Shown here in pieces: positions 14,500 through 63,951 of a stretch of DNA of 64,000 nucleotides (position 1 is the first letter of the stretch; every line of letters starts with the position of its first letter). Under the pieces are notes generated by a model. That model did no database searches and was not told where the DNA came from. It saw only the letters and a program-made list of their open reading frames with translations. A program made the translations under genes and the position numbers. The stretch comes from an uncultured Bdellovibrionales bacterium (GTDB lineage: Bacteria; Bdellovibrionota_C; UBA2361; CAIXSY01): the NCBI GenBank assembly GCA_964510065.1, contig CAZEAC010000010.1:2074-66073 (forward strand), in the 5' to 3' direction.

Positions 14500-14543
14500 G
14501 GTGAGGTTAAGCCGTGGACCAGCTGCTTTGTCAGAAGTGTAGC

Positions 14544-16067: not shown

Positions 16068-16089
16068 TCGGTTTGTTTTTAGCGAAATT

Positions 16090-16755: not shown

Positions 16756-16972
16756 ATGACTTTTCTGAATGATAATGCAATTTTGCGGCGATGCAAAGTG
16801 AGGACGCAGTGCGGCCACGCCGCAACAATAATATCGAAAGGGCTCCATTCCGGCACGCGCGAGGCAGGGCGCGTGCCTGGCCGGCTAAGCCTCGTAGCAT
16901 GGGAGAAGCAATTCGCTTGGCGCGCTTTCAAAAAAGTAAAAAAATATTGCTGTAAGTTTATACCCTATCGCT

Positions 16973-19366: not shown

Positions 19367-19448
19367 GTAGTCGATCTCCGGTATTGATATTTGCAAGGCG
19401 CCATATGTTGGCTCATAGCGCTGTATACTGTTAGCAGGTAATGTATAC

Positions 19449-19633
19449 TAAGGAACCTCTGAAAAACTATGCATTTCGTCTTCGCTGGCCTTTCGGCGAT
19501 CTTTGCGAGAAAACATGCCGGGAAAATACTCGAAATAGCCCTGCTATTCCTGCGTTTTTCCCGGCATGTTTTCTCGCAAATCTCATCCAAAATTCCAGCA
19601 AATCCAAAACGCCTAGTTTTTCAGAGGTTCCCT
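19449..19633. repeat. nested inverted-repeat element: perfect 25-bp inner IR (TTTGCGAGAAAACATGCCGGGAAAA / TTTTCCCGGCATGTTTTCTCGCAAA, 29-nt spacer) inside a 20-bp outer IR (TAAGGAACCTCTGAAAAACT / AGTTTTTCAGAGGTTCCCTA)
   Basis: Read directly. Lies in the divergent intergenic region between the 807-aa secreted protein gene and cpaB. Confidence 0.8.
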
Positions 19634-19922
19634 AAAATACCTTGCCATAAATACCCCCGCGGTCGTTTCTTTGAAGAACTGCCGATCTCTAATGCTTATT
19701 GTATTCTACAGGATATTTGGCTAACCGGTCGCCTTTCAAGATCAGGCGATCTCCTTGTCGCCTACAAAGGTAGGCCGCATCGGTAAACGGAGCCCGTAAA
19801 TCGCGTCAGGGCTCTGTTCCGGTGAGAGTTGCGAGTCCGGAGGATAGTGCTGATAGAACGGCCATTCGTTCATTTCGAACCAAACCCTAGCGCCCTGGTC
19901 TGATAGTAAAAGGAACGGCTCT

Positions 19923-20813: not shown

Positions 20814-21571
20814 GCTTTTTCTCCAATCAGCGCATCAAGTGCGACGAATTCGAATCCGCGAGCACGTAGCTCACGAATAATCTGCGGCAACAACTGAACC
20901 GTCGCGTCGCCGTAATCGTGAAAGAGAAGAATTGCGCCCGGTGCTACCAATCGTAGTATTCGGCGGCGAAGCAACGCAGCATTTCGGATTACTGTGTCAA
21001 AGGAACGAAGGCTCCAGCCGATAGCCAGAAGATTTTGTTGCTCAATTGCTTTGGCCAGTGAAGGGGTGCTTACGCCGTTAGGCGGCCGAAAAAAGCGTGG
21101 CCGCTTCCCAGTAACTTGCATAATCGAGTCCGCGCATCGTTCGAGATCTCGACAAATCTTCGCGGTGCTTTGAATTGCGAAATAATGTGGATGAGCAAAG
21201 CTGTGGTTGCCAACGATGTGCCCCTCGCTGATCATCGTGCGCACAAGCTGCGGGTTCTCTTCGACTCGTCGCCCGATACAGAAAAAAGTCGCGGTAATCT
21301 GTTCGTTACGGAGAATCTCCAGTATTCGTTCGGTGTTTCCGGCAATAGGCCCGTCGTCAAAGGTGATTGCGATCTGTCTGGCCGAGGTTTTTCCGCGGCA
21401 GGTAAGTGGAAAGTAATATTGAAAAGAAACATCGGCCACGCCGAATGATACGAGCGTTACATACCATGCCACCGCGAGGAGAAGGATCCAACCGGCAATC
21501 CAGCCCTGGGCATAGATCACCGCAAGAAGCGCAAAAAAGGTAAAGAAAAGTATGCGTATCCGGAGGTCCAT
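20735..21571 (-). CDS. polysaccharide deacetylase (CE4, NodB-homology domain) with an N-terminal TM segment
   Basis: ITFDDGP...TATFFCIGRRVEENPQLVRTMISEGHIVGNHSFAHP matches CE4 motifs (TFDDG, H-x4-H). Start set at MDLRI (the ORF track extends to 21703). The C-terminal 79 nt overlap cpaB convergently. Confidence 0.75.
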   Translation of the reverse strand: MDLRIRILFFTFFALLAVIYAQGWIAGWILLLAVAWYVTLVSFGVADVSFQYYFPLTCRGKTSARQIAITFDDGPIAGNTERILEILRNEQITATFFCIGRRVEENPQLVRTMISEGHIVGNHSFAHPHYFAIQSTAKICRDLERCADSIMQVTGKRPRFFRPPNGVSTPSLAKAIEQQNLLAIGWSLRSFDTVIRNAALLRRRILRLVAPGAILLFHDYGDATVQLLPQIIRELRARGFEFVALDALIGEKAYFGSAVSESSQPITTFRPSITAVPL

Positions 21572-24463: not shown

Positions 24464-26605
24464 CTATTCGACAAGGGTAACAACCTTGTCGCCCTCAGTT
24501 TTTGTGCGTACGATCAGATCAAAGGGTCGCTGCGGTGTGAGTCGGCCGCGCACGACATCGCAGCTTGCAGGCTGAGTGCCGCCCTCAGAGAGCTCAAAAT
24601 TATATGGGGGAATATAGGAAGGCAAGGTAAGCGGCGGATCCCAATCAGGCTCTCCGTCTGCGTCGCAATCGTTAGCGACATTTATATCACGAGTTAAATT
24701 GCTAGTTGAGGGGAACTCTGCCCATGAGCCGTATCGCTGCCGTGCTCTGCCAGTTTCAATTGAGTAATCATATATTGTAGTGCGGATAAACCCGGCAATC
24801 TTCCACCCGGCGGCATCAGCAGGATCGATATGCCGTTCGCTCGATCTGCCGTTTACTCCGCGGCAGCCATATTTGTCGTTGTCGCCCTCACGAACAATAA
24901 TCGGAACATTTACTACCCAGGCTCGCGCTCCTAACATGCTTACTAGCGGGTAGGTGGTTGTGCGTGGGTTATAGTTATTAAGAAGCGCCGACGAGCAGGC
25001 GCCGTTATTGGTTCGACTTGAAAATGGGGTGTCTGTTCCCATATAGGGTGGAAGAAATGATGGATCGAGATAGGTTGAATAATCTTTGAAAGGGCGGTAC
25101 TTCTTCACATCACCTGTGTCATAGTCCCAAATTGCGCACATAAAATCACCCCTTCTATCCCAAGGCGCAAACATTTGACATATTCCATTGTCGACCCAGG
25201 TAATAAATTCATCTTGTAGCTCGACATCGCTTGCGAAATTATCAATCCGGCCGAACATATTCTTAACGTCATTCCCAACAAGTGGCCTGTAAAAATCTAT
25301 CGGATAGAAATTGGCAGGGTCAATAAAGAGCCAGGGCTTGATATACGCCCACTCAAGTGGCGTGGTCCTTAGCTGTGGATTATCCTTTGGAATGATCACT
25401 GAGTGGAAGCTATTTGCTCCGGAGAGCCTATCGCGCATACGATTTCGAGCATTGTCCGAAGTCAGGCCAGCAGGAAGTATGCTGAACCAATCACCTATAT
25501 CAGCCTGAATGCCTCCGCTTGGGCAGACATCGGTACCCACAAGCGCATTTCGTACCTGTGCTTCGTTCACCGTATCAGTTTGCGAACCTACCGGGAGCCC
25601 GACTACTCCGAAATGGTCAAAGTGCGTGTAGTTGGTCCTATCAAGGCGGAAGGTATTCCAAAATGGGGTCTCGTTCGTTGTCGAATGATACGCGAGCTCT
25701 TGCTCAAGGGCGTACTTACTCTGTAATCCAGTCAGTGTAGTATCGGAAGCGATTGCGTCAAAGGCGGCGTCGCTCATTGTCTTTGGATTTACCGGATCTG
25801 CGTAACCCACCGGCGTCCAAGAATCTGGAAGCGGCAAGCTAAGGTCAGAGTCGCCATGATACGCCTCGACCGGAAAAGCTGGGTAGGCGCAGTTTGTGCC
25901 ATCATCATTACAATAGATTTTTACCGGCGCAAAAAGCCTATCGACGTCGTCGACGTCATTGATATTAAGCTCGCCATTGTTATCGAGAAGAGCACAGAGC
26001 GGAATTGCAAAGGGCGCTGCGCACGTTTGCCCAATCCTATCAGCGATGGCTGTGGCGGTAACTTCGACTTCAAAAAGTGCATTAATAAATTTGGGAAGGC
26101 CTGGCTGCACTATCGGTCTGGTTAACTTCACCCGAACCGCGTTGGCAGCGACATACGGCGGAAGCACGACACTGGTCGTACCTTCTAAAGATCTAAAACC
26201 CGCTTCTGCGCTTGAATCAGGAAGCCATCGACCGCGCTCAAGGCTGACCGCGAGATTATCGGAGCCGCCGGGCCCGGCGTTCCAACTAACTTTAGTATCG
26301 TCACTGAGGTCGTTTCGGATAGCGCCGAGTTGGATAACTTTACTTGCACCCGGATAGCTTAAAACTTTCTGTCCCTCGATTGCGTCAAGCGCGGCGATAC
26401 GGGACTTTTCCCAGCAGTCGAGTGAGGAGCATAATGTTGCCGCCGCTGCGGTCGCCGCCAAGTCTGCGCTGCCCTGTAGTTGGCTACGCGCGAGCGCGAC
26501 CGATCCAACAAGCACGACGGTTCCAAGGAGGAACATAAGCGCAACGGCAATGAATATCGCCATTACTATGGCGACGCCGCGCTCGTGAGTAGATGAGTAC
26601 CGCAC
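24464..26605 (-). CDS. TadG-like (Tad_N-domain) large pilus-associated protein (713 aa)
   Basis: N-terminus HERGVAIVMAIFIAVALMFLLGTVVL matches the TadE/TadG N-terminal signature (ERG..A.V.FAL). Large Gly/Asn/Asp/Pro-rich extracellular region. Confidence 0.55.
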   Translation of the reverse strand: MRYSSTHERGVAIVMAIFIAVALMFLLGTVVLVGSVALARSQLQGSADLAATAAAATLCSSLDCWEKSRIAALDAIEGQKVLSYPGASKVIQLGAIRNDLSDDTKVSWNAGPGGSDNLAVSLERGRWLPDSSAEAGFRSLEGTTSVVLPPYVAANAVRVKLTRPIVQPGLPKFINALFEVEVTATAIADRIGQTCAAPFAIPLCALLDNNGELNINDVDDVDRLFAPVKIYCNDDGTNCAYPAFPVEAYHGDSDLSLPLPDSWTPVGYADPVNPKTMSDAAFDAIASDTTLTGLQSKYALEQELAYHSTTNETPFWNTFRLDRTNYTHFDHFGVVGLPVGSQTDTVNEAQVRNALVGTDVCPSGGIQADIGDWFSILPAGLTSDNARNRMRDRLSGANSFHSVIIPKDNPQLRTTPLEWAYIKPWLFIDPANFYPIDFYRPLVGNDVKNMFGRIDNFASDVELQDEFITWVDNGICQMFAPWDRRGDFMCAIWDYDTGDVKKYRPFKDYSTYLDPSFLPPYMGTDTPFSSRTNNGACSSALLNNYNPRTTTYPLVSMLGARAWVVNVPIIVREGDNDKYGCRGVNGRSSERHIDPADAAGWKIAGFIRTTIYDYSIETGRARQRYGSWAEFPSTSNLTRDINVANDCDADGEPDWDPPLTLPSYIPPYNFELSEGGTQPASCDVVRGRLTPQRPFDLIVRTKTEGDKVVTLVE

Positions 26606-26920
26606 CTCTTTGCCTCCAATGCAAACCGGTATTCTTACCAGCCCGGAGCAGATCTCCGCATTAGAAAAGAGCTCCGAGCGGTATCTACCCGACGTAAGCT
26701 CTTTCCTTAATCTCTAATCGGCAGTACTCCCGAAAAATTCCAATAAAATTCCCTACTTCCTATTTTAAAGCGTCTTGGGCGGCCATTCAACCTCTTCAGA
26801 ACGACGTATTTAACCTGAAGCATGCCTCGCTCTGCATAGGATGTGTGTAATAGGAAGCTAAGTGGGTAGCCACTTCGCTAGTGCCGGTATTCTGCGCCGG
26901 TACGACACGGATGGGGATAT

Positions 26921-27424
26921 ATGCGCTCTTTTCACGTAGTTAGAGGTGGGTCGAGTATTGGTGGGATACTCTTTGAGTGTGCCGCGATTCTTCCAGTAAT
27001 AATGACCTTTGGTGCGGTAATACTTGAATTCGGCGCAAACCTTAATGATCGCGCAAAACTAACCAAAGAAGCATCCGAGGTAGCACGACTAGTCAGCCGT
27101 AGCGCAGCACTTTCAAGTAACGAAGCTTTCTGCAACGGTGATGCACAACACCCGGGGGCGCTGAACGTGGCTCAATCCCGGCTGGTGGCCGTGGGATTGG
27201 TCGATGCGCATAATCCACAAAACTCTCCGTTCAGATCGCATATTCAGGCATCGTTCTCGGACCTTTCTAAACGTTGGAGAATTTCAGTAAAAATTGAACG
27301 TAATTTAGAAAGTGGACTTAGCTTGGTTCGAAAGTTTACTGGATTGGCGTCGGCCGAAGTGATTTCGCTTGCGAAACCGGAATATGGACCGCCAAATCCG
27401 ATTGAGACTTGGGAATGTAGTTAA
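26921..27424 (+). CDS. TadE/TadF-like pseudopilin
   Basis: RGGSSIGGILFECAAILPVIMTFGAVILEF is a TadE-like N-terminal motif. Confidence 0.5.
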   Translation: MRSFHVVRGGSSIGGILFECAAILPVIMTFGAVILEFGANLNDRAKLTKEASEVARLVSRSAALSSNEAFCNGDAQHPGALNVAQSRLVAVGLVDAHNPQNSPFRSHIQASFSDLSKRWRISVKIERNLESGLSLVRKFTGLASAEVISLAKPEYGPPNPIETWECS

Positions 27425-27437
27425 TTCGGGAAGGGTT

Positions 27438-27893
27438 ATGAAAAGAGAAAATATACACAGGAACGCTGAACGCGGTGCTACGCTAGTCGAAGCGACGGTG
27501 GGTGTTCCGCTGCTGATGATAATTACATTTCTCTTTGTTGCCTTTGGGCACTACGCCTATGTATCGATAGCGATTACCGATGCGATTGATGTCGCGGCTC
27601 GCGAGGCGTTGTCTTCTTTTTCACGCGGGTTGTCGAACTCGCAGATCGAATCAAATACAAACCAGGCGCTGCTTACTCGATTGAGCAAGTTCGGAATTGC
27701 GGGACACGGCGCAGTCGATCCCATTGTGCATACAAGCGAACTTTCTACAGTGCAAGTAAGCACCAATGGTGAAACCGAATTGCGGATTGAAGCCGAGGTG
27801 TACGCGCATGTATTCTTGAAGCCGATGAGAATACTCGAGACCGATAGACGAGGCCTTGGCAAGATTACGCGGACTATCTCAGTGCCGCTGTAG
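27438..27893 (+). CDS. TadE/TadF-like pseudopilin
   Basis: ERGATLVEATVGVPLLMIITFLFVAF is a TadE-like motif. Start at MKRENIH (the ORF track gives 27369). Confidence 0.55.
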   Translation: MKRENIHRNAERGATLVEATVGVPLLMIITFLFVAFGHYAYVSIAITDAIDVAAREALSSFSRGLSNSQIESNTNQALLTRLSKFGIAGHGAVDPIVHTSELSTVQVSTNGETELRIEAEVYAHVFLKPMRILETDRRGLGKITRTISVPL

Positions 27894-33157: not shown

Positions 33158-33206
33158 ACTCTGCGACCTCCGTGTCTCTGTGGTTTTTAAGGTATTCAAA
33201 CCACAG
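33158..33206. repeat. palindromic element, copy 2 (CTCCGTGTCTCTGTGGTTT...AAACCACAGAGACACAGAG; one mismatch)
   Basis: Same core as 3618-3674. Lies upstream of recQ, between recQ and the divergent HEAT-repeat gene. Confidence 0.8.
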
Positions 33207-33346
33207 AGACACAGAGGGTGCAGAGTTAGTGTAAGAATACCCGGGATTGATGAGTCATTACCCGCCTACTCACTAACTGTTTAGTATCATTGTCTTTTTA
33301 ATCCGCACGCTACTGCGGCAAAATCGCATAACATTAGGGAATACGC

Positions 33347-48299: not shown

Positions 48300-48776
48300 G
48301 TGAAAAAAAGTAACGCCGTGGCCGCAGACGGCATCAAGATTGTCGCCGAGAATCGGAAGGCGCGCGCCTATTTTGAAATTCTTGAGAAGTTCGAGGCCGG
48401 AATTGTACTCACGGGTGCCGAGATAAAATCGGTTCGTGCTGGTGGTATCAGCATTAACGAAGCCTATGTAAAACCCGAGAGTAATTCGGTGTTGCTCCTC
48501 GGCGCGCATGTGCGGCCCTACGCGTTTAGCAATGATCCCGAATATGTGCCGACACGCCCTAGAAAGCTGCTGCTGAGTAAAATGGAGATTAATAAGCTTC
48601 GCGGACGGGTTGAGCAGCAGGGGCTCACCATCGTTCCGCTCAAGTGTTACCTGCGACGTGGTTTTGCTAAGCTGGAAATTGCGCTCGCGCGCGGCAAAAA
48701 CGCCCCCGATAGACGTCAAGATATCAAGCGCCGTGAAGCTGATCGTGAAATCGCGCGGGCTACAAAGCGGCGCTAG
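48300..48776 (+). CDS. smpB: SsrA-binding protein
   Basis: IAENRKARAYFEILEKFEAGIVLTGAEIKS and GAHV.PY are conserved. GTG start. Lies upstream of the tmRNA gene. Confidence 0.9.
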   Translation: MKKSNAVAADGIKIVAENRKARAYFEILEKFEAGIVLTGAEIKSVRAGGISINEAYVKPESNSVLLLGAHVRPYAFSNDPEYVPTRPRKLLLSKMEINKLRGRVEQQGLTIVPLKCYLRRGFAKLEIALARGKNAPDRRQDIKRREADREIARATKRR

Positions 48777-49888: not shown

Positions 49889-50296
49889 GGGGGTGTCATG
49901 GTATCGACGGGATTTATGAGATCTATGTGAGCACGCCTAGGATCCGCAGGCCTAGTAAAAAAGGCGGAGAAACCTAAATGCAAACTCTTTTGATTTTGCG
50001 CAGAATGAAGAGCTGGCTATTGCCGCTTAACGTTCTGTAGATCGGTCCTCGAAAGACGACTGATCGGTTCTTATGCGACGCGCTTGTAATTGCATAAGGG
50101 CTTAAACTATTCGAGCTGGTCGCTGCAGCCGTTTGCCCTGCAGGGATGAGAAAATAGGCAGACTCGCTTGACGGAGATTCCGTAACAGTGAATCCAGATA
50201 GCTAAATTCGTCGCAAGGCGAAAAGTGCTGTTACTAAGCGTGTAGTGCATGTAGATTGAGACTTCTCGGACGCGGGTTCGACTCCCGCCACCTCCA
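49889..50296 (+). ncRNA. ssrA: tmRNA (ssrA); tag-like reading frame 49980-50030 encodes A-N-S-F-D-F-A-Q-N-E-E-L-A-I-A-A-stop
   Basis: 5' end GGGGGUGUCAUGGUAUCGACGGGAUUU. GUAAAAAAGGC precedes the resume codon. Tag ends in LAIAA-UAA. 3' end GGACGCGGGUUCGACUCCCGCCACCUCCA (T-arm and acceptor stem, CCA not encoded). Lies downstream of smpB. Confidence 0.9.
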
Positions 50297-50660
50297 GTTT
50301 TCCCATTCGGCATTCGAGCCCAGGGGCGGCCGCCCCTCTCGCTCGCTATGGCTCGCTTCTCCCCGCATCTCGGTTCGAATTGGTTCCCACCAGGTCCAGA
50401 CTTCGCCCCTCTGGGGCTTCGTCTGGCATGCCAGCTTTGCCGTGAAGCCTGTCGTCCCGAAGCTTTAGCGAAGGGCGACTATTCCCTTCGGCATTCTCGA
50501 GCCCAGGGGGCTCCGTCCCTTCTCGCTGCTGATTGCGGCTTCACCGCGATGACTCGAATTGGTTGCTGCCGCGTCAATGTTTTTCGCTTGGCACTTGGGC
50601 CCTTAGCGCGATGTAATTCGTCGCTCCGGCGGGTTCTTCTGGATTTACGGGCATCTCGCC
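50297..50660. repeat. two degenerate ~90-180-bp direct repeats resembling decayed copies of the ssrA 3' end (TCTCGGTTCGAATTGGTTCCCACC; GACTCGAATTGGTTGCTGCC)
   Basis: The blocks TTCCCATTCGGCATTCGAGCCCAGGGGC...CGGTTCGAATTGGTTCCCACC (50300-50392) and TTCCCTTCGGCATTCTCGAGCCCAGGGGG...GACTCGAATTGGTTGCTGCC (50483-50572) align at roughly 75% identity. They resemble the tmRNA T-arm/acceptor. Confidence 0.6.
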
Positions 50661-53573: not shown

Positions 53574-56390
53574 CTATTCGCGATTATCGCCTGCTGTCGG
53601 ACTCAGCCTTTTAAGCAGTGATTCGAACAATGGTACCAACTTTTCCAGCGCGACGGCAATTCGCTCGGCGCTGTGTTCGAGGTCCGGACCACTTGCTTGC
53701 ACGGGAAGTGCGGTGAGGCGCTTTATAGTGCCCACGGCTTGAAGCAGCTCTTCAAAGCTTAAGGAGACAGCCGGGTTGGCCTTCGCTTTAATAAGTTCGG
53801 CCTTCTTCGCGCAGCAAAGGTTCGTAAGCGCGACTTTAATTGGTAAAGGGTTTAGGCCCAGGCATTCATTGGCGAGTTTCTTAAATTCCTCACTCTGCGC
53901 ATTACCGGGAAGCGGCGATTCGAGACTTTCAAGCATCTTGGAGATGATTACCTTTACATCCTCAATCTGCGGCCCTTTCAATTCAATGTGAATACCAAAA
54001 CGACCAAGCCGAAGTGCGGCGCGATCGACTAAGTCGATATGGTTAGTCGCCGCCATGAAGATTATCTCAGGATGCTTGGTTACTTCACGCTCGATGACAC
54101 GCAACATCGCGTTGGTAAGCGCGATCTGTTCGGGTGAGTTCTTTACAAGCTGCCGTTCAATCATCTCTCCTTCGATTTCGTCGAAGAAAAGAATGCAAGC
54201 CGGAGAGTTATCTTTGCGCATTTTTCCGGCGGCTTCTTCGATCTTTGTTTGAATAAATTTGGCGAGCTGCCGTTCCATCCGCTCCTCGGTCTCGGAGAGC
54301 AGCGCTTTATTTTGCCCCCACGACTCGGAGCTTCGTTTCGCGTCCTGATAAGCGGTGGACATCTCTTCTCGGGAGATACGCAAGATTGGCATACCCATGG
54401 TGTTACCGAGACATTGCACAAGAAATGTCTTGCCAACGCCGGGATCGCCGTAAAGAATAATTCCGTTCAGGAATACCTCTCCGGGACTCCTACCGCTCCA
54501 TGCGCTTTTGTTCTCGAGAAGCAATACGTGCTTTTCAATAAGCTCCGTGAGCGTGTTGACTATATCCTCATAGCCCCAATAGTCGCTACGATCGACGGAG
54601 TAGAGCCGCGTTACCGAACGTCGCGTATCTTCGACGTACTTAGCAACGGGCGAGTTCGAAGCCGTGAGATTCGCGGTTAAACTTCGCGAAAGATCCGAAA
54701 TATCATCCAGTCTTTGTAGCAAACTCTTTACGTTTCTTCGGACGAACTCATCTTTGGAGAGTACCTGCATCGATAACAGGACCCCGGCGAGGCGGGCATA
54801 CGGAACCTCTTTCGTCTCTTCCTTGCAGGCCTTAATTTCGTCATCGATAAGCCGTGCTATCTGTACGACATCGCGCTGAGCCATAAGTATGCGAATGCCG
54901 GTGGTCGTGCGGAGCAGTGGTTCGAGGCCTGTTTGCCGCATTGCTGACTCAAGTCGCTTGGCATTTTCCGGTAAGCCGAAAATGAGGTCTTCTACTGCCC
55001 ACGCGAGTGCCCGAATGTTTTCGGGTGATTCGAAATAATTTTCCGTTTTGTAGGTACTGCCTTGGAGCTTTCGAATCTTTCCCGTAAGCAGTTTTCCAGC
55101 GGCTTCGCGAATTGCTGGCTCCGAATGGGCAAGAATCGCCGAAACTAATTCCGCGTCGTTTTCGACGGGAATTATCTTTGAAAACTCAGGTGCAATCCGT
55201 CTTCGAAGTGCGTCCATCTCATGAAATGGATCGCGAGGTATGGAGATAAACGCGCTATCAAGCGTTGAACGGAGGCCATGGAAAATGCCTAAGAGCTCGG
55301 CCTGCATTTCAGGAGTTCGAAGGACTGCCTCAAGCTCTTGCGGTGCTACCCGCCACGCTGGAGCCGAACCGCTAAGCATATCGGTAGCAATTAGCTCGTG
55401 AAGATCGTACGTGTCAGGCTTTGTTGGATCGATTGCACGAGTTCCGAAAGAGATCTGAAGAAGCTTTGCGACTAGTTTCAGATCGCCGAGCAGTCCATCC
55501 AGTACTGCAGGCTTAAGCGATACTGAAAGTTGAGTTTCAGCAACGACAGTGTCGAGCTGGATTGGGTCGACATCGGTAATCGTAGCGGCGATCGTATAAA
55601 GCTTCTTGGAGAGCTCTTCAATTTGCTGCCCTATGGTTTCAGCGCGAGCACGGCATTCGTCGGCGGACTTTCGAAGACTACTGCCGTTCTCTTTGTCATT
55701 TTGCGCCTGCAGCTCAAAACTCGACGCTTTTGTCAGTTCGCTCGCTTTACTCTGCTGCTTTGATTTTAGCTCTTTAAAATGTGGAAGAAACTCCTCTTTG
55801 CGCGAACGAGAAAGCGCTAAATACGCCTCCGGCCCGGGAAGGTTCTCCATCTGGCTGTGGAGCCGAATGAATGGCGATCCGTAGCGGTACCACTCGCTGA
55901 GTGCGATAGTATCTCGATTGGCGCGAAGATAGAGCGAATGCAGCAGATCTTCCTCGCGCGATACCTTAGCCGGCTGGCGCTCGGTGAGCGCCACCTTCTT
56001 GCAGTCAACATGGTGCATAGCAATTGGAAGAAGCTCTAGAGAAACGGCTAAATCGCGTCGCGGATCGCGAGATCCAAAACGATTCACTGTCTCTAGAAAT
56101 TTTCCAAGCGCAATAAAGCCGCCGGTAGAGACCCGCAGTGCGTCAATAAATTCCTGAGCGTTGACCGATTTTGCTCGGAGGCCTGTGCCACGCGAGATAT
56201 CAATAGTTTCGTGAAGCGGTTGTCCGCGTACATATTTTGAGAGAAGTTCAGCAAGCTGTCGCAGCTCGCGAATTGGTGAAACTCGATCAATCGGTGGCAC
56301 GCGAGGTGCAGTTTTTACTGGGCTCGATGCAGGTGATGCGCCGCCACCTCTTGTACTAGCTTCATGGCCAAAGGCACGAGATTCAAGCAT
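53574..56390 (-). CDS. orphan classical-AAA ATPase with a ~640-aa predicted alpha-helical N-terminal region
   Basis: Walker A ILYGDPGVGKTF. Walker B ILFFDEIE. Second region of homology ATNHIDLVDRAALRLGRFGIHIEL (classical AAA clade). Large insert between Walker A and Walker B. Confidence 0.8.
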   Translation of the reverse strand: MLESRAFGHEASTRGGGASPASSPVKTAPRVPPIDRVSPIRELRQLAELLSKYVRGQPLHETIDISRGTGLRAKSVNAQEFIDALRVSTGGFIALGKFLETVNRFGSRDPRRDLAVSLELLPIAMHHVDCKKVALTERQPAKVSREEDLLHSLYLRANRDTIALSEWYRYGSPFIRLHSQMENLPGPEAYLALSRSRKEEFLPHFKELKSKQQSKASELTKASSFELQAQNDKENGSSLRKSADECRARAETIGQQIEELSKKLYTIAATITDVDPIQLDTVVAETQLSVSLKPAVLDGLLGDLKLVAKLLQISFGTRAIDPTKPDTYDLHELIATDMLSGSAPAWRVAPQELEAVLRTPEMQAELLGIFHGLRSTLDSAFISIPRDPFHEMDALRRRIAPEFSKIIPVENDAELVSAILAHSEPAIREAAGKLLTGKIRKLQGSTYKTENYFESPENIRALAWAVEDLIFGLPENAKRLESAMRQTGLEPLLRTTTGIRILMAQRDVVQIARLIDDEIKACKEETKEVPYARLAGVLLSMQVLSKDEFVRRNVKSLLQRLDDISDLSRSLTANLTASNSPVAKYVEDTRRSVTRLYSVDRSDYWGYEDIVNTLTELIEKHVLLLENKSAWSGRSPGEVFLNGIILYGDPGVGKTFLVQCLGNTMGMPILRISREEMSTAYQDAKRSSESWGQNKALLSETEERMERQLAKFIQTKIEEAAGKMRKDNSPACILFFDEIEGEMIERQLVKNSPEQIALTNAMLRVIEREVTKHPEIIFMAATNHIDLVDRAALRLGRFGIHIELKGPQIEDVKVIISKMLESLESPLPGNAQSEEFKKLANECLGLNPLPIKVALTNLCCAKKAELIKAKANPAVSLSFEELLQAVGTIKRLTALPVQASGPDLEHSAERIAVALEKLVPLFESLLKRLSPTAGDNRE

Positions 56391-56531
56391 TTTCCGTCCT
56401 CCTCACACAGCAGTCGCGCGAACAAAATAGAGCGCTCGAGTGCCCAATAGGCGCATTATAAACCCGCGATCTGGGGCAACCGAGTATATTTTGACATTAA
56501 GAAATTAAGCGTTATCGACGACATACTGAAT

Positions 56532-56951
56532 ATGAGCGAGATTCTACTCATTGATGACTCCGAAGACTATCGTGAAATTATTGGAACCATTCTGCTTGAT
56601 GCCGGCTATGTAGTTTCCGAGGCACGCTGTCCAGACGAGGCTTTTGGGCTGCTTTTTGGAATGAAGTTTGATCTTATCCTTTGTGATCTGCACATGCCAT
56701 TTACCCTTGATAGGCATATGCCAGAGTTTCCCTATTCAGTTGAAGTAGGGGTTCAAACAATTGAACAGCTGCAGAGCGCGCTTCCAAAAACTCCGATTAT
56801 CGCGATTACCGCATCGATGCCCTCTGACCGCGAGACGCTGCGTGACCGAATTGAAGTGGTGCCGATATTACGAAAGCCGTTTCCGGCAGACACCCTTATC
56901 CAGGCAGTAGAGTGGGCTTTACGTGATGATCCACGGGAAAGGATGCATTAA
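56532..56951 (+). CDS. stand-alone response-regulator receiver (CheY-like) domain protein
   Basis: ILLIDDSEDY...DLILCDLHMP with the phospho-acceptor Asp context. 139 aa. Confidence 0.75.
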   Translation: MSEILLIDDSEDYREIIGTILLDAGYVVSEARCPDEAFGLLFGMKFDLILCDLHMPFTLDRHMPEFPYSVEVGVQTIEQLQSALPKTPIIAITASMPSDRETLRDRIEVVPILRKPFPADTLIQAVEWALRDDPRERMH

Positions 56952-57020: not shown

Positions 57021-58379
57021 TTAAACCGCACCATCGGGCGGTAGTAATGGCACTGTCTCCCAGCCGCTTAATTCCCAAGAAAAGCCGATCTTCATTCCAG
57101 AGAACGCGCGCTGGCCGTCCAGGAAGAAAAGAAGGCTCAACATTAGCAAAACAAGAAATAATGCCCCTTGGAACGAAGCCCCGTAGCCGTGCCACGCGCC
57201 TGCGAGCCGAGGCATGAGAAAGAAGTAAAGCGAGACGAACCAATATGGCGAGTAAAGAAAAAATTCACGCCTGTGCCCAAAAAAAAGAATAAGGAGAAAA
57301 AAAACTGCAAAAATTGTAAGGAAAACGTAGGATTGGTAGATTCGCCGTACACTGAGACTCGGCCGCGCAATCAAACTACTCGCTAATAACCACGCCCAAA
57401 GCCATAATGTTCCGCCCTGCACAATTTCAGTGAAAGTCTGGCCGTAAAGCGGTGCCTGCAGGAGTGTACCTATGGTTCGATTTTTGTAGTCGAGCGGGTT
57501 CAAAACTGGGCCGAAAATGCTTCCGATAAAGACCGCGTATATTCGATCGAGAAACTCAGTGAGCCCGTGTGGCCAATACCAGTATTGATGATAAAATCGA
57601 ATGCCTGATTTTATGGAGGTTTGGTGGAAGAAGATCGGAATTTCTGGCCAAAGAAATGTCTGCAAATAGCCAAGTACTACAAGAAGTAGTGCGAGCAGTG
57701 AGGAAAAAAAAGCCAGCGCGCGAATACTAGCGACAAAGCTCTGACCAGAGCTTAGGCGAGAAAGTATAAAAAGAAATAGCGTAAGTGGAATTGAAAAGAT
57801 TAAAACGCCGCAGGCAGGTAGTGCTGCCAATGCCTGAAGCCACCAGCGGTTTTTCTTATCGAAAAGACTGAAGCAAAATAGTACGAGAAATGCCATGGCG
57901 TAGAGGTGGGTTTCGGGAACTGCTGAGAAGAAAATGATCGGGGGGGAGGCAAGCAGCGGTAGAGTAAACGCGAGATTTGTGCTCCAGCCGACGTTTTGCA
58001 GGGAGAGAAGATAGCAAAAAGCCGCCACGATCAGAGCGGCAGGGAACGCCAGAATAATTGAAAATGAGAGTTTCTCATTTCCCGTGAGCAGAGACATTAG
58101 CTTAAAGGGCGGGTGAACCATCAGCGGAAAAAGTGGGTGAGCTCGGATCCGATCGTAGGTTTCTTCGATTGAGCCACGAAAGGGTAGAGCCCGAATCTGA
58201 GCTTCGACCTTCCCTGTGTCGGCACCGATAAGCCAGTCATGCAGTGGTGACCAGGGTAGCTCCGATAGTCGAAAGCTGCTTGCAAGCGCTACCAGAAATG
58301 ACGCAAGGAAGACTAATAAAAGAGGCAGCCCGCGCTTAATAGTAAAATCCCGCGCCTCCGCCTTCACCTCCGACACCAT
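57021..58379 (-). CDS. polytopic membrane protein (more than 10 TM helices), hypothetical; last gene of the flp-like operon
   Basis: Hydrophobicity. 44-bp overlap with the upstream TadE-like gene. Confidence 0.45.
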   Translation of the reverse strand: MVSEVKAEARDFTIKRGLPLLLVFLASFLVALASSFRLSELPWSPLHDWLIGADTGKVEAQIRALPFRGSIEETYDRIRAHPLFPLMVHPPFKLMSLLTGNEKLSFSIILAFPAALIVAAFCYLLSLQNVGWSTNLAFTLPLLASPPIIFFSAVPETHLYAMAFLVLFCFSLFDKKNRWWLQALAALPACGVLIFSIPLTLFLFILSRLSSGQSFVASIRALAFFSSLLALLLVVLGYLQTFLWPEIPIFFHQTSIKSGIRFYHQYWYWPHGLTEFLDRIYAVFIGSIFGPVLNPLDYKNRTIGTLLQAPLYGQTFTEIVQGGTLWLWAWLLASSLIARPSLSVRRIYQSYVFLTIFAVFFLLILFFGHRREFFLYSPYWFVSLYFFLMPRLAGAWHGYGASFQGALFLVLLMLSLLFFLDGQRAFSGMKIGFSWELSGWETVPLLPPDGAV

Positions 58380-59079
58380 ACGCGGCCTGTGAGAGACGGG
58401 TGGACATTACCCCGCAAAGGTCATAATGCCCGGGAAGGTCAGGCATAATCACTACCCCCCAGGCGCGCCGGTCAGGCTGGGTACAATCAATTTTTACCAG
58501 CTGTTTGAACTTGGTCTTACAGCCTCCTACGTCGCGCTTAAATAAGGCGATAAGATCATCACAGCCTCTCGACGTAAGTATGTCGGTTCCATTACGCATG
58601 GCGTATGCGCCTGTTCCTTCGGCAAGCGCAAACAGTGGCGGCTCCGGCGGATTAAGATTCCACTGAGTACGATCGACCGGGGCATTAAGTCCTCCGGGAC
58701 AAAGATTTGAAATATCGTCAATCTGTACAAGAAATGAACAGACCCCTACTTTCAGGTAGGTATTATACGAGACTCGATTGCTTAACTTAAAGAGCTCCCT
58801 TTCGGCCAAAGTAGGCGAGAGTAGAATCCGTCCGCCTCTGTTCGGATCAAAGTCAAAAACTATCGGCTCAGGCCCAATTGCTGCGACGAGATCCATTCCC
58901 TGTTCAAGATCGATGGCCAAAATCCGCGAGCGCAATTTCGGGTAGATAAATAGATAGCCGAGCAAAAGAATTACTAAGAATCCTGAAAGGATGAGCGCAG
59001 CCTCAATAAGTGCAACTCCTCCAGGCTTTACTGAGCTACTACCGCGAAAGCGCGTTTTTCTTATTATCCTCATCAGCAT
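58336..59079 (-). CDS. TadE/TadF-like pseudopilin (247 aa)
   Basis: N-terminal PGGVALIEAALILSGFLVILLLG. Confidence 0.5.
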   Translation of the reverse strand: MLMRIIRKTRFRGSSSVKPGGVALIEAALILSGFLVILLLGYLFIYPKLRSRILAIDLEQGMDLVAAIGPEPIVFDFDPNRGGRILLSPTLAERELFKLSNRVSYNTYLKVGVCSFLVQIDDISNLCPGGLNAPVDRTQWNLNPPEPPLFALAEGTGAYAMRNGTDILTSRGCDDLIALFKRDVGGCKTKFKQLVKIDCTQPDRRAWGVVIMPDLPGHYDLCGVMSTRLSQAAYGVGGEGGGAGFYY

Positions 59080-59183
59080 AGCTATTAGCTACTTTTACCA
59101 CTTCAATCAATGGTTGCCCACCCATCGTATAAAGGGCAAGATACTTTGCTAGTAAGAATTAGAGCCGATGAGCGAAGCCCGGT

Positions 59184-60047
59184 TTAGAGCCGAGCTTCAA
59201 GATAGTTCGGCACTTCGACATTGACCTGTTTCTTCGATCGGACCACAACAGTAAAGGGCTCGCCGCTCGTATCAATTCCCAGCGCCGACAATAACTTTAC
59301 AATAGGCTGAATAAATTCGGGCGAAACAGCATAGATACACTCGAGTGCAAGGCTATTAGTTGGGATGAATTCCTTATAATCATCATGAACTTTATTGAAG
59401 AGTGCGCGCGCACCACCTCTCGCCGGCTTAAATTTACAGGTAAGACAGCCTGCTCCATCGGCCCTATTCGCGTCGGTTCCTAAAGGGTCACAGGGATAGC
59501 GCACCTGTCGGCCTAGGCTCTCGTAGATAAGGTTATTGGCATATCCTAGGCCATACATATAAATCGCCGGAAACTCTTTGGGGGTTGAGCCGCTCTCGAC
59601 TAATAGCGAATCGTAACTTTTTAGCACAGACTTATAAGAGAGCTCGGCCACTTCCACCGGTTCGCTTGGAGTGGCTTCTTTCCAGTTTCTATTGACTAGT
59701 CGGATTGGCGCGCCTGCGGCAAGGATGGACTTGGCATAGGACCAGTCATTCGTACCACTTAAAACTGATACAGTCCCGGCAGTTGCATAAAGCGGGTCAC
59801 GATCCGGTGAGTCGGTGCTCACTCCGCCAAGTGTTGGGACTACCGCCGAGCCGGCGCGGCGTGGATCGCCACGGGTAATTGCAAGTCTTACTGCTTGACC
59901 TGTTGCCCAGTGCACCGTAAGTGTTGCGTGCAGAACTGTGGCAAGCCAGAGTATAGCGAAAAAGAAAGTCATCACTATCGGAAGGGCGAAGGCCGCTTCA
60001 ATTAAGACAGCACCTTTAGAAATATCGCCGTGTATGTACCGCTTCAT
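59184..60047 (-). CDS. TadE/TadF-like pseudopilin (287 aa)
   Basis: N-terminal KGAVLIEAAFALPIVMTFFFAIL. Confidence 0.55.
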   Translation of the reverse strand: MKRYIHGDISKGAVLIEAAFALPIVMTFFFAILWLATVLHATLTVHWATGQAVRLAITRGDPRRAGSAVVPTLGGVSTDSPDRDPLYATAGTVSVLSGTNDWSYAKSILAAGAPIRLVNRNWKEATPSEPVEVAELSYKSVLKSYDSLLVESGSTPKEFPAIYMYGLGYANNLIYESLGRQVRYPCDPLGTDANRADGAGCLTCKFKPARGGARALFNKVHDDYKEFIPTNSLALECIYAVSPEFIQPIVKLLSALGIDTSGEPFTVVVRSKKQVNVEVPNYLEARL

Positions 60048-60311
60048 CTAAATACACTCCTCGGGCGAAAGAAAGCCCCGCCCGTCAGTACACGGACCCA
60101 TTGGACCGAGCGGTGTTCCAGTATACAGTGGCGTGGCCCCCTGTGGTTGCGAGGCAGCGTCTAAAGACTGGCTCCCCCGTCTTTCAAATGCCCCGCCTAA
60201 GAAATTACTTACCCCCATAAGCGCAACGAGGAGAATTGAGAGACCAAGTACATACTCGACAAGGGTTGCCCCGGTCGCGCATTGCTTATGGTTCCGCCAG
60301 GATCTGGTCAT
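60048..60311 (-). CDS. flp: Flp-family prepilin
   Basis: ATGATLVEYVLGLSILLVALMG matches the Flp motif G/(A/T)T.IEY.L..(A/S)LIA..., with a short charged leader. The C-terminal extension is longer than a typical Flp. Confidence 0.6.
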   Translation of the reverse strand: MTRSWRNHKQCATGATLVEYVLGLSILLVALMGVSNFLGGAFERRGSQSLDAASQPQGATPLYTGTPLGPMGPCTDGRGFLSPEECI

Positions 60312-62923
60312 AGCTTCGGCTCAAATGAGAACAATCGCTCCTCGATAAGTGATTTTACAAAGCTTGAGACGGTGACCCTTGTTGCGCACACGCCACTCGC
60401 GGGAAGACCATCAAGATGTCCAATGAAGTCTTTATAGAACTGATTTGAATCTCCACTACCACCACAGGAAGCCCCGGCCCCAGTCATAGTATCTGCCCAT
60501 GGGCTAATTACATAGAGACGGTTTCGGTAGGGTGCTCTAGGGCTCACCGAACTTGCCAGAGGATCTATTCCAAAGAGACAGCGGACTCGATCTACTGCAT
60601 CGCCATCGCAGTTAGCGGTTCCGGCATCAAGCGCGTCTGTCGGCGTCATCGGAATATAGATGACAGTTACCGGAAAAATACCCTGAGTCAGCTCCGGGTT
60701 GTTTATCCGAAGATCGCCGACATAGGCCAGTAAATTATGTTGATGAGGGGGGCGGTGAAGAATGATTACAGTCGGGGCATTTCTATCGAGCCGGTATAAA
60801 TTCGTTACGGTCTGGTTGCCACCGAAAGGGAATTCGGGCTCGTTGGCGTAGGTAGCAGGCCCGGGAGGTTCCGCCGGCCAAACCGTGAGCGGGAATAGCC
60901 CTGGCGGTGCGTAAAAGAAGGGATGTGGCTGGTTTGGTGCGCCAAAGTTATTTGGCAATCGACGATGATTAGCGAGAAATGAGCCGAAGTCGGGAAGCAG
61001 ATCGTTGTCCCCGCCGGGCTTTTGGCAAGGCCAGCCGGGAAAAGCTTCATTCAGAGGATGATAGCCTACGGGACAGGATTGGATCGATCCAATTATCGCC
61101 GCGACCTCCGGAGCGGTAAGGCCTCGGGAGGTATTATTGGTTTCGTCGTTAAGATCGGTGCTGTGTGGATCCACATTGCTGTTTGGCCAGGGTCTTGGCC
61201 CCTGCTCCCAGGGCTGACCGGGAGCGAAGGGTATATTTCTAAGCTTCGGGTTATAGGCAAACCCTGCCGGGTCAAACGGATCGTTACCAGGCAATATGAA
61301 TTGTGGCCTATCGATCCCATTTCGGTCATCTATGCCATTGTCATCTGGATCGAACCCGGAGTAGAGCTGATAGCAGATCCTTAGCTGCTCGGCGATAAAC
61401 TGCTGATGCTGGTCGCTTAGATTGTAGAGGTTCGCGTTCCCGTTTCCATCTCGCCAGGGGTTTATCGGACCATCCTTATTCTGGACACTCCACGCGTCGA
61501 AGTGTCCATCGATACTGCCAGTGACCGGGTAATCCTCTCGTGAACTATTGTAGTATACGTAAGGCAGCTGATACTGCGGCGCGGCAAGATCATCTCCTAG
61601 CAGTGAATCAACAATCTTTACAGGTTTATTTTGTCCCCAGGTCGAGCTGTAATAATCAGTGTTCGGTGATCTTCGGTTTGCCGGGTTTACTACGGCGAGA
61701 TCGGTTGAGTACCTGGTAAGAGAAGATCGCATAAGATACTCTAGCAATCCGCTTACAATCAGGTTTCTTACAAATATAGTAGGATTAAGGCAGGCCGCCA
61801 TGTGCGACCAAAGCGGGTCTTCACTGCCCCATCCTGAAATATGCATATAATCAAAGTAGCCACCGAGTTCATCACCTGCATCCGCAGGTGGAGTTCCATT
61901 ATCTACCGCATAGCCGCCGGGAGAGATGTCAAATTCAGTTGCTGGCTTTTTGTGATTGCCGGGATCGCCTATAAAGTGAGTGCTAAAAAGAGAACCATAT
62001 TCTCCAAGGGTAGTTAAGCGGAGGAGGCTATATTTATCTAAATACTTCTTGGTCTCTACTCCAAGAGCTCCCTCATTTGGTTCCCACCAAGGGAAATTTG
62101 CTGGGCCGGGAATTGGCGTCGTCATCTGAGGTGCCACCAAGATCTTAATTCCCATCGGCCCCTGCGGGGCTCCACCAGCGGTAAGCGGAATCTCGCCACG
62201 AGGTCTGCGCCAGAAAGCTGATTTAGCCGAGATAATTCTTGGCCCGAAAAAAATCGTTGAGTACTCCGCAACCGCTTCGCAGGCAACTGCCGCGCCGACT
62301 AGTGGGTTAGGAAAATTAGGAGGAGTTTCGGGGCAGGCGCCACCACCTGCTGTTTGCGGGGATACACAGCCGGTTGAGACCAAGTTGCCGCTCCAAAAGT
62401 TGTTAGGAAAGCCACCGCTCGGTGCGTTGAAATCAGTGGTGTCGTAAACATACTCGCATGTTCCAACAGCTCCAACATCACAGCTGGTAATGTTACATAT
62501 CCCACTCGCGCAGCCGCTGAGCAGTCCCGCTGCATTTGCTGTGAAATTGGCCTCAAGGTATCCCGGATCAAATACTGGGGCATACACCCGCGCATGGGTG
62601 ATGGTAAGATTTCGCTGACGCGGCGCAGCCGCCCAGGCATTTACCTGGTCGCGAAAGCCAACGACAACTTCGCGCTGGAAAAAAGGATTGTAAGAGACTG
62701 TCCTACAACGTTCATCAAGATCCCTTCGAAAGCCGGTTTCAGCGTGTTTGGTAAGGAGTAGATCAACTCCGAGCGCGCTTATCACTATGCTGAAAATCGC
62801 GCCCATTACCGCGATAAGCGGAATCACGACACCGGCGTCAGAGCGGAGCCGCTTAGAAAATCGTGGCAATTTATTGGGAATGCCCATATTCCTTAGATGC
62901 AGTTTTGAAAGCACAATGCGCAA
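60308..62923 (-). CDS. giant TadG-like / pilus-tip-like secreted protein (871 aa), first gene of the flp-like operon
   Basis: N-terminal RSDAGVVIPLIAVMGAIFSIVISALGVD (TadE/G-like hydrophobic N-terminus). Asn/Asp/Pro/Gly-rich body with many DPxxD/NG motifs. ATGA coupling to flp. Confidence 0.5.
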   Translation of the reverse strand: MRIVLSKLHLRNMGIPNKLPRFSKRLRSDAGVVIPLIAVMGAIFSIVISALGVDLLLTKHAETGFRRDLDERCRTVSYNPFFQREVVVGFRDQVNAWAAAPRQRNLTITHARVYAPVFDPGYLEANFTANAAGLLSGCASGICNITSCDVGAVGTCEYVYDTTDFNAPSGGFPNNFWSGNLVSTGCVSPQTAGGGACPETPPNFPNPLVGAAVACEAVAEYSTIFFGPRIISAKSAFWRRPRGEIPLTAGGAPQGPMGIKILVAPQMTTPIPGPANFPWWEPNEGALGVETKKYLDKYSLLRLTTLGEYGSLFSTHFIGDPGNHKKPATEFDISPGGYAVDNGTPPADAGDELGGYFDYMHISGWGSEDPLWSHMAACLNPTIFVRNLIVSGLLEYLMRSSLTRYSTDLAVVNPANRRSPNTDYYSSTWGQNKPVKIVDSLLGDDLAAPQYQLPYVYYNSSREDYPVTGSIDGHFDAWSVQNKDGPINPWRDGNGNANLYNLSDQHQQFIAEQLRICYQLYSGFDPDDNGIDDRNGIDRPQFILPGNDPFDPAGFAYNPKLRNIPFAPGQPWEQGPRPWPNSNVDPHSTDLNDETNNTSRGLTAPEVAAIIGSIQSCPVGYHPLNEAFPGWPCQKPGGDNDLLPDFGSFLANHRRLPNNFGAPNQPHPFFYAPPGLFPLTVWPAEPPGPATYANEPEFPFGGNQTVTNLYRLDRNAPTVIILHRPPHQHNLLAYVGDLRINNPELTQGIFPVTVIYIPMTPTDALDAGTANCDGDAVDRVRCLFGIDPLASSVSPRAPYRNRLYVISPWADTMTGAGASCGGSGDSNQFYKDFIGHLDGLPASGVCATRVTVSSFVKSLIEERLFSFEPKL

Positions 62924-62974
62924 CTCAACCTTAGCTACATCTGTCGACAGTAGGAGTTAACGTACTTAAGTAAA

Positions 62975-62990
62975 AAAATCTATAGATTTT
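62975..62990. promoter_or_regulatory. perfect 16-bp palindrome AAAATCTATAGATTTT in the AT-rich region ~50 bp upstream of the flp-like operon; candidate operator
   Basis: Read directly. Lies in a low-GC leader. Confidence 0.4.
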
Positions 62991-63071
62991 AACTACTTAA
63001 ATCAACTAGGGATATTTCTTAGAAGAGTCTCAGCAGCAAAAAAATATGTAGCGATTTCAGTCTTTTGCCCT

Positions 63072-63142
63072 AAACCCGTGACGGTCCCACATGTCCCTAC
63101 TTTTCTGAGAAAGTAGGGACATGTGGGACCGTCACGGGTTTT
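63072..63142. repeat. perfect 32-bp-arm palindrome (AAACCCGTGACGGTCCCACATGTCCCTACTTT-ctgag-AAAGTAGGGACATGTGGGACCGTCACGGGTTT)
   Basis: Read directly. Overlaps the stop codon of the 63097-63951 gene and lies upstream of the flp-like operon promoter region. Confidence 0.85.
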
Positions 63143-63951
63143 AGAAAATCACCGCGCGCGCTTTGATCTTGCATATCGAAAATATCCACACCACTTTTAA
63201 CAAAGTATGCTGCGCTGCCGTCAGCCCAATACTGCGTGGTAATCTCGCGCCAGCCTCCGAACTTGAATTGCCAGCTGCTAGTCTCTGAAAAGGGAAACCA
63301 GGGGCTCCAATTTCTTTCGCCATCATCAGAAATTCGAAAAAATTCGGCGCCTTTTGCTCGATGGTGGAAGGTCGCCTTTCGTTTGGCAATCGGTGTGCGT
63401 GACGAGGTTGCCCCAAGATCAACCATCGTATAGTCGATTATGTGGTCAAAGTTAATATCACGATTGAAGATAACGTTGCCCTTGGTTCCACTTCGAATCC
63501 GAGAAGAGAACTCCGAGAATAGTGCTCGGCCGTCAAGTGACTGAGCTCCCTTCAAAATCATAATCCGATTGATTCCTTCGCGAAGTGCAGTAGAGAATAA
63601 AAAGGAGGTCGCCCCATCCTCACTCTTTAGTCGGTCATTAGTAAGCGCTTTACCGTTAATGGTGATTGAGTGCGCGAGCGAACTTATGTTCATAGCTCGG
63701 TTGAATCTTAGCTTCACCACAATATCTCCCGACGGAACAGCCGAGTCATGCGGCGGATCAACCGAAAGAACGTATGGATCGAGCTCTCTATAGATTCCTT
63801 TTGGTACGAATATCTTCACCCCGTAGCCGGGGATTCCAATGACAACTTTTCTATCGTTGCCTACCTGCAGCGATTCGCGCGCATCGAGCGCGTTAACATA
63901 GCTTGCACTTCCGATACCCAAGGTGCGCGCCATGCTGAAGCTAGAAGTCAC
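63097..63951 (-). CDS. hypothetical protein (at least 284 aa; may extend beyond the window)
   Basis: ORF. No recognised motif. Confidence 0.4.
   Translation of the reverse strand: MTSSFSMARTLGIGSASYVNALDARESLQVGNDRKVVIGIPGYGVKIFVPKGIYRELDPYVLSVDPPHDSAVPSGDIVVKLRFNRAMNISSLAHSITINGKALTNDRLKSEDGATSFLFSTALREGINRIMILKGAQSLDGRALFSEFSSRIRSGTKGNVIFNRDINFDHIIDYTMVDLGATSSRTPIAKRKATFHHRAKGAEFFRISDDGERNWSPWFPFSETSSWQFKFGGWREITTQYWADGSAAYFVKSGVDIFDMQDQSARGDFLKPVTVPHVPTFSEK

Follow-up and report, generated by a model that had tools for sequence, protein, structure and literature searches.

That the tips of Tad pili in predatory bacteria are modules that can be exchanged and that specify the target has been recognised only recently. 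The Kil pilus of Myxococcus xanthus has interchangeable tips, encoded by four scattered kilLMN clusters that code for homologues of TadE, TadF, and TadG; the large KilN forms the distal end of the tip, the tip complexes are rich in predicted disulfides, and KilO, a small Flp whose gene lies within the tip3 cluster, is the adapter of this tip and of no other (Herrou et al. 2025, PMC12075869). Kil tips are confined to the Myxococcota by hidden Markov model (HMM), and tip-like complexes have been detected structurally in Bdellovibrio (PMC12075869). The tad genes of Bdellovibrio bacteriovorus are scattered, prey invasion requires a lone tadG, and PilD processes Flp1 in place of TadV (Tesseur et al. 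2026, bioRxiv 10.64898/2026.07.08.737194). Here, we analyse a stretch of 64,000 nucleotides, which we call the window, from an uncultured Bdellovibrionales bacterium (assembly GCA_964510065.1, contig CAZEAC010000010.1, positions 2,074 to 66,073), and describe an operon of five open reading frames (ORFs) that we read, with a probability of about 0.7, as a stand-alone Tad (type IVc) pilus minor-pilin "Tip" cassette serving a machine encoded elsewhere. The reading is built on domain and motif content, family membership, conserved synteny, and a pilin-like plus vWA fold; from these we infer the formation of a complex, its location at the tip, the adapter role of one subunit, dependence on a distant machine, and any role in predation.

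All five ORFs lie on the minus strand and are co-oriented in the operon (Table 1). An earlier note on this DNA had described an 871-aa giant protein translationally coupled to an Flp-like pilin, followed by two TadE-like genes and a membrane protein and preceded by two palindromic control elements, and the genes and both palindromes are present where it placed them. The 871-aa ORF exists, but is better read as 859 aa from an in-frame ATG, which has AAGGA 4 nt upstream; a protein collection derived from NCBI carries the product in its 859-aa form, and we regard this ATG as the more likely start compared with the TTG. The four other products are recorded with exactly the boundaries given here, each as a singleton cluster. 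The overlap behind the proposed coupling is real, with the stop codon of the large gene running into the flp start as ATGA. The flp stop abuts the start of the 287-aa gene (TAG-ATG, 0 nt between), the 287- and 247-aa genes are separated by a 104-nt gap, and the 247- and 452-aa genes share 44 nt. By hydropathy, each of the four soluble proteins has a single N-terminal hydrophobic helix, and the three smaller ones carry class-III signals with Gly at -1, Glu at +5, and the hydrophobic helix (KG/AVLIE in the 287-aa, GG/VALIE in the 247-aa, and TG/ATLVEY in the 87-aa protein, with the slash marking the cleavage site). When all six frames were scanned for G-x4-E with a hydrophobic stretch behind it, five ORFs emerged in the 64 kb, three of them here and two being the TadE-like genes of a second tip-type module, cluster 1. 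A tblastn search against plasmids gave no match.

Table 1. Coordinates of the Tip cassette, its leader, and other tad-type genes in the window.
Feature	Position	Strand	Description
Large gene, full ORF	60308-62923	minus	871 aa from TTG start
Large gene, preferred start	60308-62887	minus	859 aa, ATG at 62887
Flp-like pilin gene	60048-60311	minus	87 aa
TadE-family minor pilin gene	59184-60047	minus	287 aa
Pilin-like protein gene	58336-59079	minus	247 aa
Polytopic membrane protein gene	57021-58379	minus	452 aa; mostly beyond the span of the earlier note (58336-63142)
Perfect palindrome AAAATCTATAGATTTT	62975-62990		16 bp; in AT-rich leader, 38% GC
Perfect hairpin	63072-63103 and 63110-63141		32-nt arms, 6-nt loop; straddles stop codon of upstream gene (63097-63951)
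Cluster 1, second tip-type module	24464-27893		TadG facing two TadE-like genes
Cluster 1 TadG gene	24464-26605	minus	713 aa; Pfam Tad and Tad_C
Cluster 1 TadE-like genes	26921-27424 and 27369-27893	plus	
Lone RcpC/CpaB gene	19923-20813	plus	Pfam RcpC 4e-15, plus SAF

The cassette is not peculiar to the window. Pattern scans based on an 11-sequence alignment of the large-protein family identified four genomic loci, in metagenome-assembled genomes (MAGs) labelled Bdellovibrionales, Oligoflexia, 'Ca. Dadabacteria', and Deltaproteobacteria, and four metagenomic loci, three of which were long enough to read, for a total of seven readable loci. In all seven (eight of eight with the window), an ORF for an Flp-like protein of 75-89 aa begins within a few bases of the end of the large gene. 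Two TadE-like genes lie upstream of the large gene in each of the five loci with enough upstream sequence, while the two loci short of it contain one such gene (L006) or the end of one (L005). Pfam TadE always matches the gene adjoining the large gene, and the outer pilin gene usually goes unmatched. The conserved unit is accordingly written pilin - TadE - large pilin - Cys-loop Flp, of which the window order, large pilin - Cys-loop Flp - TadE - pilin - membrane protein, is a permutation with an orphan added; the gene order that the earlier note found unusual is thus unusual even against the cassette's own relatives. The neighbours of the cassettes in the related loci are unrelated genes of the housekeeping kind (FtsY, SpoVR, a Ser/Thr kinase, and a cyclophilin), and no Tad core genes were seen beside the cassettes in the seven loci.

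Two of the related loci carry further genes next to the cassette. Directly 3' of the cassette in the Oligoflexia MAG (L002) lie two paralogous reprolysin-like proteins of ~1,200 aa (13285-16953 and 17275-20922), one of whose metalloprotease matches is above the Pfam threshold; the pair may possibly be effectors that are secreted in connection with the tip. The 'Ca. Dadabacteria' MAG (L003) carries one more pilin-like gene (7399-8082, minus strand), which belongs to the outer type and not to TadE; it stands divergently just upstream of the cassette and looks like a duplicated minor pilin.

The 859-aa protein is rich in Pro (10.1%), Gly (9.4%), Asn (6.5%), and Asp (6.3%), contains 16 Cys, and begins with a class-III-like signal, SDAG/VVIPLIAV, that has no Glu at +5. 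It has no sequence match in Pfam, NCBIfam, or the PDB, and a word-indexed homology search returned the protein itself only, as did the family profile. An exhaustive search of 1.84 billion representatives yielded 93 proteins at E <= 1e-3 and 60 at E <= 1e-10, mostly of 700-1000 aa and 26-39% identical across the matched stretches, with members recovered from Bdellovibrionales and Oligoflexia MAGs, among others; by their taxonomy, these relatives point to a Bdellovibrionota/Oligoflexia-like bacterium as the source of the window. The family alignments contain invariant Cys at 61, 203, 366, and 505 and motifs that include ACMNPxxLVRN, QLRxCYHLY, DLRPDL, and PGLFP, all of which the window protein keeps; the N-terminal consensus of the family, ExG-V-x-x-P-L-x-A-V, is a TadG-style class-III-like signal that likewise has no Glu at +5.

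The AlphaFold2 (AF2) model of the 859-aa protein, computed from a 71-sequence alignment (predicted template modelling score, pTM, 0.84; mean predicted local distance difference test, pLDDT, 74), consists of a 48-residue N-terminal helix (residues 17-64), a beta-sheet region with strands spanning 94-252, and a distal alpha/beta domain of ~600 residues with several low-confidence insertions. The earlier note had raised the possibility of a von Willebrand factor A (vWA) domain, and a vWA-type alpha/beta fold, of the kind seen in the pilus tip adhesins Mfa5, PitA, GBS104, and RrgA and in the modular type IV minor pilin PilB of Streptococcus sanguinis, is found at fold level by one method. A Foldseek search of the model against the PDB gave nothing significant, a plausible outcome where long insertions interrupt a vWA core, yet one that leaves the fold call with that single method. 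The earlier note left the giant protein as an unexplained partner of the pilins; the model instead suggests a TadG/KilN-type large tip pilin, in which a pilin-like helix and sheet would be followed by a vWA-fold domain with long insertions.

Turning to the partner of the large pilin, the 87-aa protein combines the cleavage context ATG/ATLVEY with one hydrophobic helix. The earlier note had tied its Flp assignment to a prepilin-peptidase context that should hold in alignments, and G/ATLVEY is invariant across an alignment of the ORF with six syntenic homologues. In these seven sequences, G14, E19, Y20, C74, and C86 are invariant, a C-terminal P-C-x(n)-E-C-x-COOH loop is common to all, and an HMM built from the six non-window homologues detects the 87-aa ORF at E = 3.5e-10. 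The extended C-terminus that had been pointed out is also real, being made up of the conserved Cys-loop and, ahead of it, a window-specific insertion, SQSLDAASQPQGATPLYTGTPLGP, of ~24 residues rich in Ser, Thr, Pro, Gln, and Gly (residues 46-69; window 60105-60176), unique at its position to the window Flp. The cassette bearing this insertion is also the sole cassette with the 452-aa membrane protein. We propose that the 87-aa protein is a minor pilin that would act as the tip adapter.

The Tad ancestry that the earlier note gave to the cluster finds its domain evidence in the 287-aa protein, which Pfam TadE (PF07811) matches at 5.1e-6 with 27 bits, above the gathering threshold (GA) of 22.9; NCBIfam TadE_Rv3655c stays below threshold. 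An HMM of the non-window TadE genes that adjoin the large gene detects this protein at E = 9e-37, and its motif KG/AVLIEAAF is accompanied by four Cys in YPCDP and GCL-C, motifs common to the orthologues. By these sequence comparisons, it is the orthologue of the second TadE-like gene in the related cassettes. The 247-aa protein has PGG/VALIEAAL, one N-terminal hydrophobic helix, and six Cys; of the two genes called TadE-like in the earlier note, it is the one in which that likeness is limited to the N-terminal motif, and it is assigned by motif and position as a putative third minor pilin in the TadF/KilL role. Orthology of the 247-aa protein with the outer ('first-type') pilins of the related loci was considered but gained no support, as an HMM of those pilins built from non-window sequences misses it.

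The 452-aa protein has ~8-11 transmembrane helices by hydropathy and contains 18% Leu and 11% Phe. It matches nothing in Pfam, NCBIfam, or the PDB by sequence, finds only itself in a word-indexed homology search, and shares no similarity with the other large membrane protein of the window; its single-sequence AF2 model, with a pLDDT of 45.6, is too poor for fold comparison. No membrane protein of this kind occurs in the seven related loci, and its membership in the module is uncertain.

Set beside the Kil system of M. xanthus, the cassette shares dispersal away from the machinery genes, a set of two small TadE/TadF-type pilins and a very large pilin with a tip-forming C-terminal domain (here predicted), an abundance of Cys, a small Flp gene within the cassette, the presence of more than one tip-type module per genome (here cluster 1), and an origin in lineages of predatory bacteria. 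The likeness to KilN that we draw is one of architecture, and for the window cassette a heterotrimer with a tip function is a proposal. The two systems also differ in their parts: the distal domain of the window protein has a vWA fold, whereas that of KilN4 was reported to lack any structural homologue in the PDB, and the Flps of the window type are 75-89 aa long with a C-terminal disulfide loop, whereas KilO is 59 aa long and fully helical.

The canonical TadE-TadF-TadG sets of Aggregatibacter, Pseudomonas, and Caulobacter (CpaJ/K/L-type) are matched by Pfam TadE in the 287-aa protein and by the TadG-like N-terminus and vWA-type fold of the large protein. The small-small-large order of the relatives corresponds to tadE-tadF-tadG, while the window reads large-flp-E-F. 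Unlike a canonical tad locus, the cassette lies outside any flp-tadV-rcpCAB-tadZABCD operon, and its flp gene comes after the tadG-type gene instead of leading the locus; unlike canonical TadG, the large protein is matched by none of the Pfam models Tad, Tad_C, and VWA. The vWA-bearing minor pilins and tip adhesins, such as S. sanguinis PilB (7b7p), PilY1-type proteins, Mfa5, RrgA, and GBS104, belong to different pilus systems, and their vWA domains generally keep the metal ion-dependent adhesion site (MIDAS), whereas the DxSxS and TDG motifs appear, from the alignment, to be replaced in the window protein. Closer in organisation is the Tad repertoire of B. bacteriovorus, with its scattered tad genes, a TadG tip away from the core, and no TadV beside the pilins; both also have regulatory genes close by, which in the window are a response regulator and an AAA+ ATPase on the downstream side. 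The B. bacteriovorus tadG is described as lone, whereas the large gene of the window sits in a four-gene cassette.

In the mechanism that we propose, the N-terminal helix of the 859-aa large tip pilin would anchor in the filament, and its disulfide-rich vWA-fold domain, with long variable insertions, would provide a binding surface at the end of the pilus. The N-terminal helices of the 287- and 247-aa proteins would join that of the large pilin to form a priming/tip complex, and the 87-aa Flp-like protein, with its C-terminal disulfide loop, would serve as a dedicated adapter between the tip and the major Flp fibre. A prepilin peptidase, either TadV or PilD, would cleave the three smaller proteins behind their conserved Gly, and a Tad machine (TadA, TadB/C, and RcpA) encoded elsewhere in the genome would assemble them. 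GspK, the tip pseudopilin of type II secretion, also has no Glu5, and by analogy the absence of Glu at +5 from the large protein, together with its presence in the three others, fits a top-most position for the large pilin. The second tip-type module, cluster 1, suggests that the two modules may provide alternative tips on one machine, and the origin of the large-protein relatives in Bdellovibrionota-type MAGs makes attachment to surfaces or prey the likely use.

Several results weigh against the Tip-cassette reading. Pfam Flp_Fap (PF04964) does not match the 87-aa ORF and also stays below threshold on the homologues (20.8 bits against a GA of 32.2 in L001; E = 0.22 in L006), so that of the two pilin families proposed for this operon in the earlier note, TadE is recovered by its Pfam model and Flp is not. 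The 247-aa protein has no match in Pfam (TadE included) or NCBIfam. Pfam Tad (PF13400), Tad_C (PF09977), and VWA give 0 matches in the window's large protein and in the 20 family members scanned, and no Pfam family of any kind turns up in any of those 20; aligned by hhalign with the TadG of cluster 1, the 859-aa protein matches over its first 45 residues only, with a probability of 5.5%. Where the predicted strands place the MIDAS motifs DxSxS and TDG, the family consensus reads, by eye, IAPxMTT and VTHQ (THQ); the MIDAS thus appears degenerate, and the protein probably lacks a canonical metal site. That a partner machine exists is an assumption, a lone RcpC being the only Tad core gene seen in the window, and the 452-aa membrane protein has no place in the model.

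The same facts can be arranged otherwise. The 87-aa Flp might instead build a specialised fibre of its own, as the major subunit. The cassette would then encode a whole filament, tip included, that borrows the Tad motor, an arrangement compatible with the full Flp cleavage motif and helix of this protein, with the translational coupling of its gene to the tip gene, with the window holding no other Flp-motif ORF, and with the several flp genes of B. bacteriovorus (bioRxiv 10.64898/2026.07.08.737194). We consider such a fibre unlikely, as the gene keeps a fixed place after the large gene in a cassette without machinery, which matches the KilO adapter case, and as coupling would imply a stoichiometry of ~1:1 and not the large excess of a major pilin. 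To our knowledge, a conserved terminal disulfide loop is also atypical for fibre-forming Flp pilins. The earlier note went further and envisaged a novel adhesin or secretion-like apparatus, which would be autonomous, derived from Tad, and inclusive of the polytopic membrane protein. The 44-nt overlap of this orphan multi-pass protein with the last pilin gene, the Tad core genes not being seen nearby, and the large protein having no annotated family all speak for that idea, but we hold it to be very improbable: the module contains no ATPase, platform, or secretin, which argues for a tip or minor-pilin cassette and not for a separate secretion-like apparatus, and the pilin-type proteins of type IV filaments are not known to assemble without these components. 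In addition, each of the four conserved genes has its counterpart in a known tip module, and the membrane protein, being absent from 7 of 7 related cassettes, is not part of the conserved unit. A place for this protein can be imagined if the lineage gained it, co-transcribed, together with the Flp insertion. It would then be a pilin-modifying enzyme, such as a glycosyltransferase or ligase resembling TfpW or PilO on type IVa pilins, that decorates the adapter, and the Cys-loop Flps would constitute a distinct, undescribed class of tip adapters across Bdellovibrionota-like bacteria. The modifying role is a guess, and we regard the whole proposal as a long shot.

Under the Tip-cassette reading, no new kind of machine is revealed, as the Tad tip cassette is already a known type of module. 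What the locus and its ~90 relatives define is a large tip-pilin family with a fixed terminal-disulfide-loop Flp partner, and neither the family nor this obligate partner has so far been annotated in databases. Sequence models of the family can find tip cassettes that TadG and KilN HMMs miss, the cassette offers a clear candidate for an adapter-to-tip pairing rule, and a genome with at least two different tip-type modules provides a setting for tip switching.

The leader of the operon contains two palindromes, for which one reading is that both are transcriptional operators for dimeric regulators. The shorter, AAAATCTATAGATTTT, lies ~90 nt upstream of the start codon within an outer imperfect repeat, TTAAGT...ACTTAA, and overlaps a weak sigma-70-like promoter on the minus strand, TTGATT-17 nt-TAGATT, such that it would cover a possible -10; this promoter has 8 of 12 matches by eye and is below the scan threshold, which counts against an operator here. 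Perfect palindromes of at least 16 bp are ~5 times commoner in the window than expected (5 against ~1.1), placing AAAATCTATAGATTTT only modestly above chance, and the remaining four fall within ORFs of 120 aa or more, indicating that such palindromes arise here without a regulatory context. On sequence grounds, AAAATCTATAGATTTT is a plausible candidate operator.

The longer inverted repeat is far beyond chance (0 of 100 shuffles; fold energy -74 kcal/mol, z = -12), but its position argues for a different role. The final 11 codons of the upstream gene lie in one arm of the hairpin and the stop codon in the opposite arm, so that the hairpin reads better as a 3' hairpin than as the leader control element proposed in the earlier note, and it resembles two other long hairpins of the window that also stand at gene ends. 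It is probably a 3' terminator or stabiliser of the upstream gene, insulating the operon, rather than an operator. A Rho-independent terminator U-tract was not called, the only UUU on the sense strand being inside the stem end. A second copy of AAAATCTATAGATTTT or of the 32-bp-arm repeat was found neither in the window nor in the related loci, no Rfam family occurs in the leader, and the leader RNA overall is not unusually structured (z = 0.3); operator function for both palindromes is, on balance, doubtful. Elsewhere in the window, the hairpins at 3617-3674 and 33158-33226 (22-bp perfect arms; 29-bp arms at 90%) have a core, CCGTGTCTCTGTGGTTT / AAACCACAGAGACACGG, in common, in the manner of a repetitive extragenic palindrome (REP)-like repeat at gene boundaries.

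The earlier note treated cluster 1 and the cassette as paralogous, diverged Tad modules. That the 859-aa protein is a paralogue of the cluster 1 TadG was rejected at the sequence level, the two large subunits having no similarity past the N-terminal helix, and by sequence the clusters are to be regarded as analogous modules rather than demonstrable paralogues. The six-frame scan of the window found no Flp-motif ORF beside cluster 1. Among the larger ORFs of the window that were scanned, none codes for TadA, TadB/C, a secretin, or a prepilin peptidase; the lone RcpC gene stands without Tad core neighbours, as would fit a dispersed tad repertoire.

The stretch that adjoins the cassette on its downstream side (53574-56951) codes for a protein of 938 aa whose C-terminal domain is an AAA+ ATPase (minus strand) and for a stand-alone response-regulator receiver (plus strand), which is convergent with the operon; a regulatory link between these and the cassette is possible on the evidence of gene position. 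Further off, an element of ~150 nt occurs in two copies, at 10670-10838 and 11867-12013, that are 92-97% identical and carry its 64-nt and 88-nt halves in swapped order. The copies flank a 204-aa ORF (11003-11617), and the second enters the 3' end of an M48 peptidase gene. Finally, the window contains a transfer-messenger RNA (tmRNA) gene at 49889-50299 on the plus strand (Rfam RF00023, 140 bits), ~1.1 kb downstream of smpB (48300-48776).

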